A DNA stretch of 64,000 nucleotides from the IMG/VR virus record IMGVR_UViG_648028025_000005. One strand, written 5' to 3'. The translations under genes and the position numbers were made by a program. Each line of letters starts with the position of its first letter. The first letter of the stretch is position 1. Below, piece after piece: positions 1 through 63,721 of the stretch. Below the pieces are notes generated by a model. It saw only the letters and a program-made list of their open reading frames with translations. It made no database searches and was not told where the DNA came from. This DNA is from a virus. Taxonomy: Duplodnaviria > Heunggongvirae > Uroviricota > Caudoviricetes.

Positions 1-651
1 TTACCAGTCAATCCAGAGTGGACCGTGTTCAGCGTAAATATAACTGTACACATCCAGATTATATTTGTGGTCTGTTAAGAACAGGCCGCAAATACATGCC
101 GAAGCTTCCAGTGCAGCGGCTCTGTTACTGAATAACCATGTAGCAACATTCCAGCGTTTTTCTGCATCCCAGTCTTTCTCAAGGCCTGATACCATGAAGA
201 AACCGTTAGTGTTGCCATCAAATAATTCTGTTTCCAAATTTTTAAGCAATGCCTGATGGACTCTTGCCAGGTATTCCGCCGGAATTTCGCCACGAATTCT
301 AATGAGATTGTCATAAACAAACATGTTCCCCGCATATGGCGATTTTTCTTTCTTGTTTTTTAAACCAGCATCATGAGCAAACTGATCAATTTCTTCTTCC
401 GTTGGTTTCGTATTGATGTTTTGCGCTGTCGTTTCTGCAATTTTATTTGCCATACTCTCTGAGTCGTGTTTATTTATAGACGCACAGAAATACAATCCGG
501 TAAACGCATCGCGCACATTACGAGCCATATTATCAGTGTCTTTTTTCGTTACCGATTCCAATTCAAGTTCGTTCAGACGATGACGAAGTGTGTGTGCTGC
601 AATCTCCTGGATTGAAGGAGGTAAATCTTTAAATTCCATCGTCAACCTCAT
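1..651 (-). CDS. hypothetical protein; distal gene of the leftward (pL-side) early operon of prophage A
   Basis: 216-aa ORF from track; stop TAA at 1-3; ATG at 649-651 overlaps the stop of an upstream 50-aa ORF (TGATG); no family motif recognised by eye. Confidence 0.5.
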   Translation of the reverse strand: MRLTMEFKDLPPSIQEIAAHTLRHRLNELELESVTKKDTDNMARNVRDAFTGLYFCASINKHDSESMANKIAETTAQNINTKPTEEEIDQFAHDAGLKNKKEKSPYAGNMFVYDNLIRIRGEIPAEYLARVHQALLKNLETELFDGNTNGFFMVSGLEKDWDAEKRWNVATWLFSNRAAALEASACICGLFLTDHKYNLDVYSYIYAEHGPLWIDW

Positions 652-803
652 CAGTCAGTGTTTCTGGCTAACCAGCGACGCGCGCCAGCTTCAGTTTTAA
701 ACGTTTTGCTTTTGGTATACGTCATCGCGGTGAACGTACCGTCCTGGTTGGGAAACACGCCGCATACCAGAGATTCGTTGTTGCCAAGATTGAGCGTATC
801 CAT
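651..803 (-). CDS. small hypothetical protein (50 aa), translationally coupled to the 216-aa ORF
   Basis: ATG at 801-803 preceded by GAGG; stop overlaps next start; below six-frame track length cutoff; first ORF after the conserved leader element. Confidence 0.3.
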   Translation of the reverse strand: MDTLNLGNNESLVCGVFPNQDGTFTAMTYTKSKTFKTEAGARRWLARNTD

Positions 804-816
804 GTTGACCTCATTC

Positions 817-971
817 CCCCTTAACGCCGGGTCGCGGAACTAAAAACCTGCTGCGCTGTTATACAAAGTGTTCCCGCCGTCATGTTCATACGCCTCGGGC
901 TGGCTACTTAACCCCTGACCACTGCTTGGTAACTCGAAGTATTGCCCGGCGTTCTGTGGGGCGGGGTGGGT
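817..971. promoter_or_regulatory. conserved ~155-bp leader-like element just outside O_L (copy A)
   Basis: near-identical copy at 49659-49813 in prophage B; in both prophages it lies between the O_L palindrome and the first leftward gene. Confidence 0.4.
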
Positions 972-995
972 GGTTGGTGTATGTAATCTACAAGT

Positions 996-1022
996 AAAAA
1001 CTGTTTTGTGTCAACAGTTTTT
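996..1022. promoter_or_regulatory. O_L-type palindromic operator (AAAAACTGTT-N7-AACAGTTTTT)
   Basis: perfect inverted repeat read from sequence; same half-sites recur in the repressor/cro intergenic region at 2029-2057. Confidence 0.45.
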
Positions 1023-1079: not shown

Positions 1080-1367
1080 TCAGATAGAGAAGGGAAATTG
1101 TCGCCGAGAATGTGTCACGCTTACAATCTCAATGCTTGAAGCAGCTACTCTGTACAGGATTATGTAGTTAGGGTGGGTCACGATCTCTCTCAATCCAGAA
1201 ACCCGTTCGCTTGGTGGATATAAGTACGGATGCTCAGATAGAGGTAATACCGATGTTTCAATGCGTATTTTTAGTCTACGTGCTGCCGGTGGGTTCTCCT
1301 TGGCGATGTAAGTTATGATCTGGCGCAAATCATCGCGAGCAGACGGTAGCCATAAAATGGGTAACAT
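1080..1367 (-). CDS. parE: type II toxin, ParE/RelE superfamily (ParE of a three-component paaR-paaA-parE module)
   Basis: 95 aa; ParE-like C-terminal pattern LREIVTHPNYIILYRV...HSRRQFP; start overlaps stop of upstream antitoxin ORF; operon position. Confidence 0.85.
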   Translation of the reverse strand: MLPILWLPSARDDLRQIITYIAKENPPAARRLKIRIETSVLPLSEHPYLYPPSERVSGLREIVTHPNYIILYRVAASSIEIVSVTHSRRQFPFSI

Positions 1368-1558
1368 TACTCGCTCTTGTTAGTTACAGCAATTTGAGCA
1401 ATAAGATTTTCCATTTCAGCCATTACCTCGTCATGTGGAATTGCGGGGCGAGTGTCTGCAAGGCTTGACGTTACTTTAGTGCGCAACCATTCGTTGTAAC
1501 TGTTTTCTTGTTCGGTAGTTTCGAATTCTGAAACTATCGGAGAAAGGGCTGTACCCAT
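1367..1558 (-). CDS. paaA: PaaA-family antitoxin (63 aa)
   Basis: 63-aa ORF immediately upstream of and overlapping parE; N-terminal SEFETTEQENSYNEWLR segment typical of PaaA-type antitoxins (recalled, not searched). Confidence 0.75.
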   Translation of the reverse strand: MGTALSPIVSEFETTEQENSYNEWLRTKVTSSLADTRPAIPHDEVMAEMENLIAQIAVTNKSE

Positions 1559-7197: not shown

Positions 7198-8088
7198 TCA
7201 GGCTGCCAGATCATCGTTTCCGATGGAAGCATAATAAGCTTTTTCTGCTTCTGCCGGAGGAGTATGGCCCAGCCTTCCCAGCAATCGTCGATTGTTATAC
7301 CAGTCCACCCACGTTAGTGTGGCCAGTTCCACTTCTGCACGGTTTTTCCAGCTCTTACGGTGTATTACCTCCGCTTTGTAAAGACCATTGATGCTCTCAG
7401 CCATCGCGTTGTCATACGAGTCGCCTGTACTCCCTGTTGATGCCAGTAATCCGGCTTCTTTTAGTCGCTCCGTATAGGCCAGTGACACATACTGAGAGCC
7501 TTTATCGCTGTGATGGATGGTGCCAGACGGACGACGGGCCCACAACGCCTGCTCCAGCGCATCCAGCACGAATGTCGTTTCCATAGACGATGAGACCCGC
7601 CACCCCACGATGTATCCGGCAAACACATCAATGATAAACGCCACATAGACGAAGCCCTGCCATGTGCTGACGTAAGTAAAATCAGCCACCCACAGCTGGT
7701 CAGGTCGTTCTGCCACGAACTGACGGTTTACGCGGTCGCCTGCGGCAACGGCTTTCCGGCTGATGGTCGTACGGACCTTTTTACCCCGGAGAACACCGGC
7801 AAGTCCCATAACCGCCATGAGACGTGCCACTGTACATCTGGCCACCCTGATTCCTTCCCGTAACAACTGACGCCAGACTTTACGCACACCGTACACCTGA
7901 TGATTTTCATCGTATACGCGCTGTATCTCTCTCTTCAGCCAGTCGTCGTGCTGCGCACGGGCACTGCGTTTATCCGGATGATGTCGCTGTTGCTGACAAT
8001 GGTAATACGTTGACGGGGCAATATGCAGTTCGCTGCATACCGGTCCGACCCCGTACTGCTCACGCAGCTTATCCAGCAGTGGCATCAT
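7198..8088 (-). CDS. IS629 transposase OrfB (DDE catalytic domain)
   Basis: 296 aa, recognised IS3-family OrfB sequence ([16 protein letters not shown]...). Confidence 0.9.
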
Positions 8089-8411
8089 TTTTTCCAGAGG
8101 CGGTCGAACTCCGCCTTCGCAAAATAAGCGGAAGCCTGGCGAAGGATATCGTTACTGCGGCGCAGTTCACGATTTTCACGTTCCAGCTCTTTCAGACGCT
8201 GACGTTCAGCGCTGGTGAGCCCACCATCACCGCCCCCGGTATCCCGCTCATGCTGGCGAACCCAGACACGCAGGGTCTCCGGCGTACAGCCAATCTTTGG
8301 GGCAATGGAACAAATTGCCGCCCACTGTGAGTCATATTCATCCTGACTTTCCAGAACCATACGAATCGCCCGCTGACGGACTTCGGGGGAAAAACGAGTA
8401 TTTTTAGTCAT
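8085..8411 (-). CDS. IS629 transposase OrfA
   Basis: 108 aa HTH protein [19 protein letters not shown]...; overlaps orfB start at A-rich run (GGAAAAAATGATG). Confidence 0.9.
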
Positions 8412-9499
8412 CCTGTTTACCTCTTTCTCAGGGAGTTTAGTCTCCAGGATTTCCGGGGCGGTTCATATACTTTTAGTGTGCTTTGATTCTGATATATCAT
8501 CTTTAATTATCTTGATGATTCTTTCATTCTGCCATAGAAGTGATGGTGCAGATATATAATAATAGTTAAAGCATGAATTATTTTTTAAGCAATCAAGCAC
8601 AAAAATAGCACCTAGCGAGTGCCCCCATATACCGATTCTGGAACTGTTCGGAGCAATAGTACTAACCCATGGCATGATCTGAGTTAGTAATAATTCTCGG
8701 AAAGACTGGCTTCCTCCACCAGTAAAGTAGATCCATGCTGGTTTAGAGTTATCAACAATAGCATTTTCACCATCAGGAGTATAATCGTAAGCACGGCGAT
8801 GAATGCTAAGGTTATTCCAAGATTCATAACCAAGTGTAACTAACACTGGTGGATTGGGTAGTGCATCAATAACAGGCAGAATATCAGAAATGTAATTGTT
8901 GGCACTATTCCCATCAAGTATATAAAGAGTTGCATTATTTTTTTTAATGTTTTTTGGAGTAAAAATACATATTTTATATTTGGTGTCATGGTTAATTGAG
9001 TTAAATATGCGTGTTTGACAATGAATGTCCATATGTTTAGTCATGCGTTCTCCCCATGAGCATTAAAGGATGCTTAAGATATGCTATGTCACTGATAAAA
9101 AATTTGTTGTGTGTGTTTAGTTATTTTATCTACCTCCATTATGATTTAAGACTGATATATGTTATCAGCAAAGGTACATCGTTATTATTTTACCTGTCAA
9201 TACATTTGATATTGATTATCGTTTACATCGCTTGCTTAGGAAATTGAAGGCAGGTAACTATCATGTCAATGAACTAACCCACAGTCTAACGTACTTCTTT
9301 CCCCAATCACCAACAACCAAATTCCTGTTATCACCACTGGGATTTTGGCGCAACTTCATGGTGCAGAGGTAAATAGCATCAAGCAAAATCTCTTTTTCCG
9401 TTGTTGTCCTTATGGGACGTCTGTCTTTCTGACCGATTTCATATTGGCGAGGTAATGGGAAGTTAAGTAGAATAGCTGCGGGTGCTTGAGGCTATCTGC

Positions 9500-9648
9500 C
9501 TCGGGCATGAACACCAACGGCAGATAGAGAAAAGCCCCAGTTAACATTACGCGTCCTGCAAGACGCTTAACATTAATCTGAGGCTCAATCTATGAACGGC
9601 AAATCTAGGTTAGCCTCTTACGTGCCGAAAGGCAAGGAGAAGCAGGCT
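9500..9648. promoter_or_regulatory. hok leader region; expected location of mok start and antisense sok RNA
   Basis: by analogy with hok/sok loci only; in-frame upstream extension of hok ORF begins at 9592; no sok promoter mapped. Confidence 0.3.
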
Positions 9649-9804
9649 ATGAAGCAGCAAAAGGCGATGTTAATCGCCCTGATCGTCATCTGTTTAACCG
9701 TCATAGTGACGGCACTGGTAACGAGGAAAGACCTCTGCGAGGTACGAATCCGAACCGGCCAGACGGAGGTCGCTGTCTTCACAGCTTACGAACCTGAGGA
9801 GTAA
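9649..9804 (+). CDS. hok: Hok/Gef-family type I toxin (HokD/RelF-like, 51 aa)
   Basis: MKQQKAMLIALIVICLTVIVTALVTRKDLCEVRIRTGQTEVAVFTAYEPEE; single transmembrane helix; followed by terminator. Confidence 0.85.
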   Translation: MKQQKAMLIALIVICLTVIVTALVTRKDLCEVRIRTGQTEVAVFTAYEPEE

Positions 9805-14379: not shown

Positions 14380-14455
14380 GGCCCTTTAGCTCAGTGGTGA
14401 GAGCGAGCGACTCATAATCGCCAGGTCGCTGGTTCAAATCCAGCAAGGGCCACCA
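14380..14455 (+). tRNA. tRNA with CAU anticodon (Ile2/Met type, ileZ-like)
   Basis: 76 nt cloverleaf read by eye; acceptor GGCCCTT/AAGGGCC; anticodon loop CT-CAT-AA; T arm GCTGG-TTCAAAT-CCAGC; CCA encoded. Confidence 0.85.
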
Positions 14456-14462
14456 TCACATA

Positions 14463-14539
14463 CCGCCATTAGCTCATCAGGAAAGAGCGCCAGCTTTCGA
14501 AGCTGGTTGCGCGGAGTTCGGGTCCCCGAAGGCGGTCCA
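14463..14539 (+). tRNA. tRNA-Arg(UCG)-like, degenerate copy
   Basis: anticodon loop TT-TCG-AA; relative to canonical B copy (62477-62553) it has an A-A acceptor mismatch, an A-C T-stem mismatch and altered T loop TTCGGGT. Confidence 0.55.
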
Positions 14540-14552
14540 TTATCTGTATCCT

Positions 14553-14629
14553 GCGTTGTTAGCTCAGCCGGACAGAGCAATTGCCTTCTAAGCAATCGGT
14601 CACTGGTTCGAATCCAGTACAACGCGCCA
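14553..14629 (+). tRNA. tRNA-Arg(UCU) (argO-like)
   Basis: 77 nt; acceptor GCGTTGT/ACAACGC; anticodon loop CT-TCT-AA; T arm ACTGG-TTCGAAT-CCAGT; CCA encoded. Confidence 0.85.
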
Positions 14630-14669: not shown

Positions 14670-14734
14670 AAATGTCTCACAATTCAGGCGGTTGACTGTT
14701 GTCTGGTTTGCGGGGAGTTTGTTAAAAGAAACTG

Positions 14735-14842
14735 GCATGGTGAATCCCCCTGTGCGGAGGGGCAATCAGCGAGTAGGTATATGGGATAATCGCGGATTCA
14801 GGTGCTGGTACTGAATTCACCGGGAGGCACCCGGCACCATGC
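14735..14842. promoter_or_regulatory. conserved ~105-bp non-coding element upstream of nanS-p (copy A)
   Basis: ~90% identical copy at 63442-63549; contains hairpin CCCCCTGTGCGGAGGGG; A copy followed by hairpins at ~14868-14920. Confidence 0.35.
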
Positions 14843-15118
14843 AATGGCACATAGCGCCACTCTCCAGCCCCTCTCCGGAGGGGCTTTCTTATGGACAAAA
14901 AAAGCCCGCGCAGGGAGACGCGGGCGGCAAGGAATAAACAACAAAACGTGAAGTAATATTTCAGCTGGCGAATAATATCCGACAGTAATCACTCTGCGCA
15001 ATAGCGCGGCCTTTTTCGTATTGCGGGCTGTTGTCTCTCTTCTGCCATTGTCCTGTAACTTCCGGACTTCAGCCCGCTCCTCATTTTACTCACAATATTA
15101 TCCCGGCCGGGAGGATTC

Positions 15119-34111: not shown

Positions 34112-34437
34112 AAACCTTTCGCTGGAAAGTGAAGCCGGATATGGAGGTGAACTCACAGCCATCGGTGCGTGAAGTGCGTTTTGGTGACGGGTACTCACAG
34201 CGTATGGCGGCAGGGCTGAATGCTGACCTGAAAACATACCGGGTGACGCTTTCCGTGACCCGGGAGGAGGCCCGGCATCTGGAAGCGTTTCTGGCAGAGC
34301 ACGGGGGCTGGAAGGCATTTTTGTGGAAGCCACCCTATGCATACCGGCAGATAAAGGTGACCTGTGCCGGGTGGTCTGCGCGGGTCGGGATGTTGCGCGT
34401 TGAGTTCAGCGCGGAGTTTAAGCAGGTGGTGAACTGA
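34108..34437 (+). CDS. M: tail tip protein M
   Basis: 109 aa, lambda gpM-like. Confidence 0.9.
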   Translation: MKTFRWKVKPDMEVNSQPSVREVRFGDGYSQRMAAGLNADLKTYRVTLSVTREEARHLEAFLAEHGGWKAFLWKPPYAYRQIKVTCAGWSARVGMLRVEFSAEFKQVVN

Positions 34438-62391: not shown

Positions 62392-62467
62392 GGCCCTTTA
62401 GCTCAGTGGTGAGAGCGAGCGACTCATAATCGCCAGGTCGCTGGTTCAAATCCAGCAAGGGCCACCA
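62392..62467 (+). tRNA. tRNA with CAU anticodon (Ile2/Met type)
   Basis: identical in sequence to 14380-14455. Confidence 0.85.
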
Positions 62468-62476
62468 TATCACATA

Positions 62477-62553
62477 CCGCCATTAGCTCATCGGGACAGA
62501 GCGCCAGCCTTCGAAGCTGGCTGCGCGGGGTTCAAGTCCCCGATGGCGGTCCA
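62477..62553 (+). tRNA. tRNA-Arg(UCG), canonical copy
   Basis: acceptor CCGCCAT/ATGGCGG fully paired; anticodon loop CT-TCG-AA; T arm CGGGG-TTCAAGT-CCCCG. Confidence 0.8.
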
Positions 62554-62566
62554 TTATCAGCATCAT

Positions 62567-62643
62567 GCGTTGTTAGCTCAGTCGGACAGAGCAATTGCCT
62601 TCTAAGCAATCGGTCAGTGGTTCGACTCCACTACAACGCGCCA
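62567..62643 (+). tRNA. tRNA-Arg(UCU)
   Basis: anticodon loop CT-TCT-AA; T arm AGTGG-TTCGACT-CCACT. Confidence 0.85.
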
Positions 62644-63408: not shown

Positions 63409-63441
63409 TTTTTTTGTTTGCTGTTTATTAAAAACACTTCT

Positions 63442-63549
63442 GCATGGTGAATCCCCCTGTGCGGAGGGGCGATCAGCAACCAGGTATATGGGATAATCGC
63501 GGATTCAGGTGCTGATACTGAATTCACCGGGAGGCACCCGGCACCATGC
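63442..63549. promoter_or_regulatory. conserved ~105-bp non-coding element upstream of nanS-p (copy B)
   Basis: ~90% identical to 14735-14842. Confidence 0.35.
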
Positions 63550-63721
63550 TTTGCCACAAAAGTGTTGTTTCTGTTTTTCTCAAACTATCATCGTTATCCC
63601 TTTATTTCCGGCTGCGCATGGCGTGGCCTTTTTTTACGACCAGCCACTGGCAGATGGCCATCCTGTAATTTGATTCCGGTTCCGGCTTTTTAACTCTGTT
63701 CCTGTACACGGGAGAAATTCG

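Follow-up and report, generated by a model that had tools for sequence, protein, structure and literature searches.

Many lambdoid phages and most of the cryptic prophages of Escherichia coli lack the antiterminator N, and read-through of the terminators in their early operons is usually ascribed to a mechanism like that of put RNA, which overcomes terminators in cis through binding to the β′ zinc-binding domain of RNA polymerase. The early operons concerned carry cell-division inhibitors, recombination functions and the small RNA DicF. The put RNA is about 70 nucleotides (nt) long with two stem-loops, and putL is located just behind the early-left promoter pL of a lambdoid phage that has no N function (PMC9378689). 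Lambdoid phages that lack N are frequent, and a put-like mechanism has been assumed for them (PMC12315714). We have analyzed a stretch of 64,000 nt from a caudoviral record (IMG/VR IMGVR_UViG_648028025_000005), which as a whole is here called the window and which is identical to E. coli O26 strain RM10386, for a segment of about 160 bases that, by the inferred starts, opens the pL transcript of two prophages: copy A at 817–971 in prophage A and copy B at 49659–49813 in prophage B, both on the minus strand. In both prophages, which are lambdoid, of the Rac/Qin type and heteroimmune to each other, this segment forms the 5′ leader of the pL transcript; it is a structured RNA that is conserved and does not code for protein.

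The two leader copies and their promoters

The original prediction, which was made from the sequence alone, had put the identity of the two copies at about 90%; by global alignment 140 of 158 columns are identical, which is 88.6%. The 150 nt on either side are 53.1% (promoter side) and 49.7% (gene side) identical between the copies, compared to a mean of 49.2% and a maximum of 56.1% for random pairs of 155-nt windows. Because the flanks are at the identity of random pairs, the leader is a real and sharply bounded island. A covariance model (R1) that was trained solely on lineages outside the window, from other genera, finds exactly two matches in the 64 kb, 49815–49710 with 83.8 bits and 970–872 with 68.5 bits, both on the minus strand. 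Each copy is preceded by a sigma-70 promoter:

985–1014, minus strand: pL of copy A, with −35 TTGACA (1014–1009), an 18-nt spacer and −10 TAGATT (990–985)
49824–49852, minus strand: pL of copy B, with −35 TTGACC (49852–49847), a 17-nt spacer and −10 TAAATT (49829–49824)

Transcription is inferred to start near 978 and near 49817, respectively. At each pL there is a repeat, overlapping or adjoining the promoter, that is found again in the right-operator (OR) region of its own prophage: copy A's promoter sits within the operator-like inverted repeat AAAAACTGTT (996–1005, plus strand; 1013–1022, minus strand), found again at 2030–2039 between repressor and cro of prophage A, and the operator-like AAATTTGTAA of prophage B is found at 49866–49875 and again at 51108–51117, between repressor and cro. 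The repressors (1586–1987 in A, 50632–51030 in B) both belong to HTH_3 and are 31% identical to each other; opposite both are genes for a YdaS-like Cro and for YdaT. Since the repeats are shared with the repressor/cro region and the repressors are divergent, the promoters are those of two heteroimmune Rac/Qin-type prophages. That repressors and operators differ beside the copies, and that the element is the 5′ leader of the leftward transcript, had both been predicted correctly: the repeats are AAAAACTGTT in the one prophage and AAATTTGTAA in the other, and the promoters with their shared operator repeats bear out the leader.

The prediction had also let the leader end in a GAGG serving as ribosome-binding site of the first leftward open reading frame (ORF) in each prophage. 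For copy A the site is real, ahead of ydfA, and lies just outside the interval. For copy B an AGAGG-N8-GTG starts a leftward ORF of 118 amino acids (49642–49286) without RefSeq annotation, and the first annotated leftward gene, ydfC (49214–48996), follows only about 450 nt beyond the leader.

Structure of the leader RNA

A coding function, which would have spoken against a regulatory RNA, is ruled out by stops and by variation of frame and length among homologues. Of 214 unique homologues, at most 11% are without stops in any given frame, whichever strand is read, and insertions and deletions in the 3′ part (module 2, see below) are not multiples of three, so that no frame is kept in register. 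The invariant junction contains a conserved GAGG-N9-AUG, but the ORF behind it has 4–62 codons and shifts frame between variants; because neither length nor frame is conserved, it is not read as a gene, and a leader peptide is rejected with it.

The 5′ part, module 1, is a multi-helix junction of 95–108 nt composed of a closing helix P0, an arm of P1b and P2, and two small hairpins, P3 and P4. In the window copies it begins about 10–14 nt past the inferred transcription start. The 3′ part is module 2. The elements are located as follows:

873–965, minus strand: module 1 of copy A; P0 965–960/878–873, P1b 959–956/922–919, P2 950–945/929–924 (two mismatches), loop CAAUACUUCGAGUUA 944–930, hairpins P3 913–902 and P4 900–892, junction GUAUGAACAUGAC 891–879
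818–872, minus strand: module 2 of copy A; linker, conserved GCGCAGCAGG 856–847, GUUC 840–837, predicted H-type pseudoknot 836–818 (S1 836–833/828–825, L1 832, S2 831–829/820–818, L3 UUAA 824–821)
49714–49808, minus strand: module 1 of copy B; P0 49808–49802/49720–49714, P1b 49801–49798/49764–49761, P2 49792–49787/49771–49766, loop 49786–49772, P3 49755–49744, P4 49742–49734, junction 49733–49721
49660–49713, minus strand: module 2 of copy B; linker, UGCAGCAGG 49699–49691, GUUC 49684–49681, predicted H-type pseudoknot 49680–49660 (S1 CGCU 49680–49677/GGCG 49671–49668, S2 CCCC 49675–49672/GGGG 49663–49660)

P0 is formed by the first transcribed bases and the GGC(A)NNN that comes after the invariant GAACAUGAC, and it encloses about 30 invariant unpaired bases alongside the two small invariant hairpins. 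The arm is capped by a conserved 15-nt loop, CAAUACNNCGAGUUA, which together with YUAAGUAGCCAGCCYGAGGC and RNANGAACAUGAM makes up the near-invariant unpaired stretches. The helices differ widely in sequence between lineages. P0 is CCC-GCC/GGC-GGG in E. coli, CAGCAAC-GCU/GGC-A-GUUGYUG in Pectobacterium, AACAAC-GCC/GGC-A-GUUGUU in the C41 type, CCAAC-C-CGC/GCG-GUUGG in Symbiopectobacterium, UCACU-GC/GC-A-AGUGA in Arsenophonus and AAGC-GCC/GGC-AAU-GCUU in Superficieibacter. P2, counted strictly by its distance to the conserved loop, is found as CGCUGAG/CUCAGCG, CACGAAG/CUUUGUG, GGCUGGA/UCCAGCC, CGGCAGG/CCCGCCG and CACCAGG/CCCGGUG.

In a hand-segmented, N-padded alignment of 23 sequences from seven lineages (A6), each row of which was verified after removal of the padding to be present in the data, 88% of the cells are paired, compared to 71% in shuffled controls and 26–50% when the partners are slid. 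Two-sided changes occur in 19 of 31 pairs, namely in all seven of lower P0, in five of seven of P1b and in all seven of P2, whereas the three GGC-proximal pairs of P0 are invariant or changed on one side only; P3 and P4 are invariant, so that covariation cannot bear on them. In an alignment-free test, in which 5′ and 3′ strands were swapped between lineages, the cognate strands won in 5000 of 5000 permutations each for P2, for the arm beyond P2 and for P0; it should be noted that the sequences are related by descent and that such shuffle counts are not probabilities. The conserved fold that had been proposed as a check is thus found, with abundant compensatory changes in P0, P1b and P2 and with the swap test agreeing.

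Folding by energy gives a mixed picture. The architecture of the model is the minimum-free-energy (MFE) fold in the C41 type, Pectobacterium and Serratia and, less completely, in Symbiopectobacterium and Superficieibacter, and RNAalifold also arrives at P0 and P1b de novo. Folded singly together with their flanks, the E. coli copies do not exceed shuffled sequences in stability (z = +0.75 and +1.11), and the MFE fold of the E. coli copies is internally unlike the comparative model, for which reason the structure of module 1 rests on covariation rather than on energy. MAFFT and RNAalifold applied to E. coli-dominated or unpadded alignments missed the helices owing to register shifts. Two further pairings were considered and dropped on inspection: a long-range helix AACGCCGGG/CCCGGCGUU that closes the whole 155 nt in the MFE fold of copy A is lost in common variants, and the candidate partners for tertiary pairs between loop and junction are invariant or do not covary. 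L309 (1495–1738) and L376 (6819–7062) are recombinants with a 5′ half of the E. coli type (CCCGCC…) and a 3′ half of the C41 type (…GGCAGUUGUUG); because lower P0 no longer pairs in them, the exchange seems to have taken place within module 1.

Module 2 of the type found in the window is present in 238 of 280 unique instances. Its motif GCAGCAG(G), also GCAGCAGG, starts 19–22 nt past P0 in 108 of 113 unique tails (range 18–28), GUUC follows a further 10–15 nt on in all but two tails, and then comes CGCC-A-CCC-GGCG-UUAA-GGG. By the crossing order and the covariation of both stems, the end of module 2 is judged to be an H-type pseudoknot. S1 varies between C-G, U-G and U-A, with one flip from C-G to G-C, and S2 occurs as CCC/GGG, CCCC/GGGG, CCG/CGG, GCC/GGC, GCCG/CGGC and GCCAG/CUGGC. 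Pairing is kept in 94% of the cells (S1 89%, S2 100%) vs. 34–48% in slid controls, with two-sided changes in seven of nine pairs; in the E. coli type L1 has 1 nt and L3 4–5 nt. From the end of the pseudoknot to the Shine-Dalgarno sequence of whichever gene is first it is 5–10 nt. Alternative hairpins P5 and P6 that would switch and hide the Shine-Dalgarno sequence were abandoned in favor of the pseudoknot, since the two stems both covary and are topologically compatible, and since the pseudoknot does not include the Shine-Dalgarno sequence of ydfA. One module can occur without the other: the leader of the dicB promoter in the Qin prophage of E. coli K-12 (L409, 840–940, between dicA and ydfA) has neither module 1 nor the GCAGCAGG motif and yet retains the CAUCAAC start context, a small hairpin, GUUC and the pseudoknot ahead of ydfA.

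Distribution, genomic context and relation to N

By blastn, at least part of the leader is present in 4382 of 5426 complete E. coli genomes, i.e., in more than 80%, and with a query coverage of at least 80% it is found in 2827 complete genomes (at least 52%), with a median of two and up to eight places per genome. In the Rac prophage of K-12 it sits between racR and ydaG. Most of the leader is also found in 11 deposited coliphage genomes, e.g., those of Tritos and Evi, among 50,697 phage records searched by blastn. Homologues were collected with the 19-mer TAAGTAGCCAGCCNGAGGC from one genome per species plus viral and metagenome sequences, a scan that is biased to copies with an intact core; besides Escherichia/Shigella, the genera bearing the leader are Pectobacterium, Serratia, Superficieibacter, Symbiopectobacterium (several copies per genome), Arsenophonus and Candidatus Phlomobacter.

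The position relative to promoter and repressor is kept throughout. Of 266 unique upstream contexts, 161 have a promoter that matches sigma-70 in at least 9/12, and in 137 of these 161 the distance from the end of the −10 element to the conserved loop is 36–40 nt; because this distance is nearly constant, the leader is taken to begin about 3–14 nt from the start across homologues. Immediately upstream on the same strand there is a gene for a helix-turn-helix (HTH) repressor in 28 of 29 contexts. It is the sole near-universal neighbor: the downstream genes vary between the copies in these 29 contexts, and a search across them for a co-occurring protein partner returned none beyond the repressor.

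The prediction had seen no recognizable N gene in either prophage, and indeed the window contains no N-like ORF; it has no boxA either. There is no N_peptide match in the first leftward ORFs, no phmmer match of any window ORF to lambda N or Arsenophonus N at E ≤ 10, no exact boxA (YGCUCUUUAA-like), with one-mismatch matches at chance frequency and none near pL or pR, and no boxB-like pentaloop hairpin in the two copies, where the pseudoknot takes that position. The element is not a canonical nut site; the prediction had offered a nut-like RNA as one option, but boxA, boxB and N gene are all missing for the window copies. Elsewhere they are present. A boxA (CGCUCUUUAAC) is found in 25 of 280 unique homologues, mostly from Arsenophonus, 22–30 nt past P0 and in two cases at 48–49 nt. 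In Arsenophonus-type instances it is followed by a boxB-like hairpin, e.g., UCGCUGAAAAAGCGA, with a GAAAA loop. An N-like ORF lies within 1.5 kb in 17 of the 25, and one of these passes the Pfam threshold for N_peptide with 40.6 bits; in four instances from Symbiopectobacterium, a lambda-N-like ORF follows about 850 nt further on. By contrast, a detectable N-like ORF accompanies none of the 238 unique instances with the window's type of module 2. Because they are equivalent in position and differ in N status, boxA-boxB and GCAGCAG-pseudoknot are seen as alternative occupants behind a common 5′ domain. In Arsenophonus module 1 stands ahead of boxA-boxB and of a gene for N, so that it cannot simply be regarded as standing in for N. 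The argument that the element is present because N is absent is thereby weakened, also by the N-like ORFs in Symbiopectobacterium.

Some contexts deserve mention in their own right. In Symbiopectobacterium (L227, L234, L236 and others) an extra 5′ hairpin, CCACC-AGACAGCCUCCAGCCAGAC-GGUGG, lies between promoter and module 1, and one chromosome of Symbiopectobacterium purcellii has at least seven leader copies, all with this hairpin. Candidatus Arsenophonus nilaparvatae (L222, 4748–7778) has two immunity regions in tandem, both in the same orientation and both comprising a repressor gene, module 1, boxA/boxB and an N-like gene, the repressors being a DicA-like protein of 134 amino acids in one and a LexA-type CI of 215 amino acids in the other; similar pairs about 1.8–2.7 kb apart are found in L249, L251, L262 and L287. 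The record PP818812 ("Actinobacillus phage vB_Apl-pPE4"; L220) has a leader of the C41 type and genes for a DicA-like repressor, YdaT, Kil and exodeoxyribonuclease VIII in an order like that of Rac, and its leader closely matches that of the E. coli C41 prophage, so that the host assignment may merit checking.

The genes that follow the leader in the window differ between the two prophages. In prophage B the leftward order is leader, ydfC, DicF, dicB (48532–48239), a DUF1482 gene and a recE-like gene (47959–45509), and by its position the DicF terminator is a barrier that transcription from pL has to pass. The features needed here are:

651–812, minus strand: Shine-Dalgarno sequence GAGG (812–809) and ydfA (DUF1391; ATG 803–801, stop 651), the first leftward gene of prophage A
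48602–48653, minus strand: gene for the small RNA DicF with its intrinsic terminator (stem 48619–48604), from Rfam with 75 bits

An ORF for a zinc-ribbon protein of 68 amino acids (49301–49507, plus strand; in RefSeq an ECs_2282 family putative zinc-binding protein) lies between copy B and ydfC and wholly overlaps the leftward ORF of 118 amino acids (49642–49286). Toxin-antitoxin cassettes are inserted between repressor and pL in both prophages: in A PaaA2 antitoxin and ParE toxin (1080–1558, minus strand), and in B HigB toxin and the HTH antitoxin HigA (49921–50585, plus strand). Because PaaA2 and ParE adjoin it, the repressor 1586–1987 looks like PaaR2 of paaR2-paaA2-parE2. The prophages share several further blocks of 85–96% identity about 48 kb apart. 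Each has, at the corresponding place, a cluster of three tRNAs (14380–14626 and 62392–62640, plus strand), and each has an STnc100-family RNA (14706–14896 and 63413–63585, plus strand). The window also holds the sok antitoxin RNA of a hok/sok module (9480–9654, plus strand), an ALIL pseudoknot, the frameshift signal of the IS3 family (8014–8130, minus strand), and, at 42666–43142 within an ORF of 250 amino acids (42645–43397, minus strand), a 141-nt unit repeated three times in tandem (96–97% identical over 195 nt).

Possible functions and comparison with known systems

We infer, tentatively and with less than even confidence, that the leader acts in cis and sets the elongation and termination behavior of RNA polymerase on the pL operon. 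It would fold co-transcriptionally beside the RNA exit channel of the elongation complex from which it emerges and, either unaided or together with host factors of the Nus type, would render the polymerase less prone to pausing and termination. Without N protein, the long leftward operon (ydfA…dicF-dicB-recE…) could then be read through its internal terminators. The core common to the lineages would be module 1, and the 3′ module would be a lineage-specific partner: boxA-boxB plus N in Arsenophonus and some Symbiopectobacterium, with module 1 as a platform for N where N is present, and GCAGCAGG plus pseudoknot in the N-less type of Escherichia, Pectobacterium, Serratia and Superficieibacter.

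We favor such a cis function because the promoter-proximal position is fixed, as for putL; because pL is repressor-controlled and shares operator repeats with the OR region; because the helices covary, cognate strands beat swapped ones and the fold is recovered independently; because the leader is independent of the downstream gene; because the boxA-boxB and GCAGCAG modules are positionally equivalent, with N-like ORFs in 17 of the 25 instances with boxA and in none of the 238 with module 2; and because the N-less leftward operon is long and has the internal DicF terminator. Also in favor is that the leftward genes of Rac rise together on displacement of RacR: in K-12 the set from ydaG to ralA is induced 40–70-fold (PMC11014345).

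Several findings weigh against this function. K-12 Qin expresses dicF and dicB (PMC10448788), and its dicF/dicB leader is without module 1. In Arsenophonus module 1 occurs together with a complete N/nut system, beside which an autonomous antiterminator would be redundant. By model R1 there is one copy of the leader per prophage and none on the pR side. Rho is reported to silence kilR of Rac, which argues against strong Rho resistance. The thermodynamic z-scores are modest, −0.4 to −2.1, and the registers of P0 and P1b in A6 were set by hand, as were those of the pseudoknot in alignment A7; that of P2 was not. The counts of G-U vs. A-C, 26 vs. 32 overall and 14 vs. 4 in P0, leave the strand unfixed, and the strand was assigned because of promoter, operon direction and nut-site orientation. 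Last, putL and putR of HK022 and the putL-like RNA of HK639 resemble each other, with the core GAACGGCGCG…AAACCAUGCGUCGG…GGCGGG.UCAGGA, and the leader lacks any such likeness.

That module 1 and its lineage-specific 3′ partner together constitute a second class of phage RNA, structurally unlike put, which confers N-independent termination resistance on E. coli RNA polymerase, is possible but doubtful. If true, the many lambdoid phages and prophages without N, such as Rac, those like Qin, and Tritos, would have in the leader their long-assumed early antitermination device. The leader is in any case a concrete and widespread candidate for N-less read-through, with an experimentally accessible copy in K-12 Rac, and the covariation-based model pinpoints the compensatory mutants to be made; the junction includes GAACAUGAC and UAAGUAGCC.

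The leader might instead work after transcription, as a safety catch on the translation or stability of the first leftward genes and, by coupling, of the toxic kil/dicB, which we consider conceivable but rather unlikely. The pseudoknot by the Shine-Dalgarno sequence and the 5′-terminal P0 would then set ribosome access and the sensitivity to RNase E/RppH. This agrees with the 5–10 nt between pseudoknot and Shine-Dalgarno sequence, with the covariation of both its stems (94% of cells, seven of nine pairs), with its occurrence ahead of different first genes (ydfA, ydaG and others) and its retention in the K-12 Qin leader, with the sequestering of the 5′ end by P0 within about 14 nt of the start, and with the division inhibitors DicB, DicF and KilR encoded in the operons. 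A simple stabilizer, however, would have no need of the conserved unpaired bases of module 1; in Arsenophonus module 1 is 150–250 nt from the first gene, with the nut sites between; and the Shine-Dalgarno sequence of ydfA lies outside the pseudoknot.

Variable covarying helices around an invariant junction and loop, closed by a 5′ helix, are typical of aptamers, and the 3′ partner varies by lineage. Module 1 could accordingly be a sensor, be it of a metabolite or of a protein from host or phage, in which P0 would switch and module 2 would serve as expression platform; in the E. coli subtype the 3′ strand of P0, GGCGGGA, is complementary to a downstream UUCCGCC. We think such a riboswitch-like function unlikely. 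Strong complementarity (−12 to −16 kcal/mol) is confined to the GGCGGG subtype of E. coli, and among 19 lineage types the cognate combinations pair no better than swapped ones (516 of 5000 permutations). There is no shared terminator or platform sequestering the Shine-Dalgarno sequence, no gene but that of the repressor co-occurs, and neither a consistently linked metabolic gene nor a ligand candidate is at hand.

We regard it as improbable that module 1 is released by processing and acts in trans, be it as a decoy or sponge, e.g., against host defense or an RNA-binding protein, or as a regulator of other leader-bearing prophages. Coming from the strongest early promoter, such an RNA would be the first to appear and would be plentiful; the leader does not depend on the downstream gene, is near-identical between the heteroimmune prophages that share a genome (up to eight places), and folds into a compact, closed structure in which many of the exposed bases are invariant. 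But P0 is followed by no terminator or recognizable processing site, the spacing to the promoter and to boxA/GCAGCAG is fixed within a few nt, which a free RNA would not need, and no such small RNA was found reported in the surveys of enterohemorrhagic E. coli (EHEC) or K-12.

A segment without RNA function, i.e., a recombination linker between mosaic modules or a DNA-level site (protein-binding or a single-strand hairpin) conserved by recent exchange, is very improbable. Lambdoid genomes are mosaic, the recombinants L309 and L376 exist, and the wobble counts do not tell the strands apart. Yet pairing is kept through different sequences in at least six genera while unpaired bases are invariant, the spacing to the promoter is fixed, and recent exchange cannot explain compensatory changes between genera.

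That the leader is a diverged member of the HK022/HK639 put family, which its place directly after pL in lambdoid phages without N function would suggest (PMC9378689), is hardly credible, since the RNAs of HK022 and HK639 are alike each other and unlike the leader, size and fold differ and R1 has no match in either phage at E ≤ 10. Blastn of the leader against the 50,697 phage records returned neither phage, and reading HK022 and HK639 (annotated putL-like, 34187–34312) revealed no blocks in common with it. The put-like option of the original prediction thus fails in the strict sense, sequence and architecture both being different.

The likeness to put is one of place and kind: both are structured RNAs just downstream of pL with conserved unpaired bases, and the leader, like put, would act in cis. 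The put RNA has about 70 nt with two stem-loops and a triplex, whereas module 1 has 95–108 nt with a closing helix and three arms. HK022 has putL and putR, HK639 is annotated with a left copy only, and by R1 the leader has no second copy on the pR side in the two prophages.

No catalogued RNA family matches. In Rfam 15 there is no window match at the leader at the gathering score, none relevant at 600–1200 with E ≤ 10, and none at the leader in five other lineages at E ≤ 1; a search of the accessible literature, including the EHEC small-RNA surveys and work on HnrS, Pas small RNAs, PaaR2, RacR and DicBF, turned up no description of the leader. The eps-associated RNA (EAR) of Bacillus and the rrn leader signals are examples of N-independent, RNA-nucleated processive antitermination by complex folds or box elements with host factors. 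They occur in other taxa and at other positions, and the leader has no Rfam match to them and no boxA in the window. Pseudoknots close to ribosome-binding sites are known from the leaders of phage T4 gene 32 and of ribosomal-protein operons, and the small H-type pseudoknot a few nt before the first Shine-Dalgarno sequence is similar to them; different are the lack of a known binding protein and of any sequence relation, and the attachment to varied first genes. With riboswitch aptamers the leader has in common the covarying helices round an invariant junction and loop, the 5′ closing helix and lineage-specific 3′ partners; a ligand candidate, a shared expression platform and an Rfam riboswitch match are what sets it apart by their absence. 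Even if it should act by translational control or as a decoy, it is among the most abundant structured RNA motifs of E. coli that have no Rfam 15 match and for which the literature searched gave no account.

To our knowledge there is no counterpart of module 1 in lambda, whose nut sites lie in the pL leader as well. Module 2 occupies the region of the pL leader that is equivalent to that of boxA-boxB, and the leader thus displays a modular design, in which a common 5′ domain is combined either with a nut module or with a pseudoknot module.

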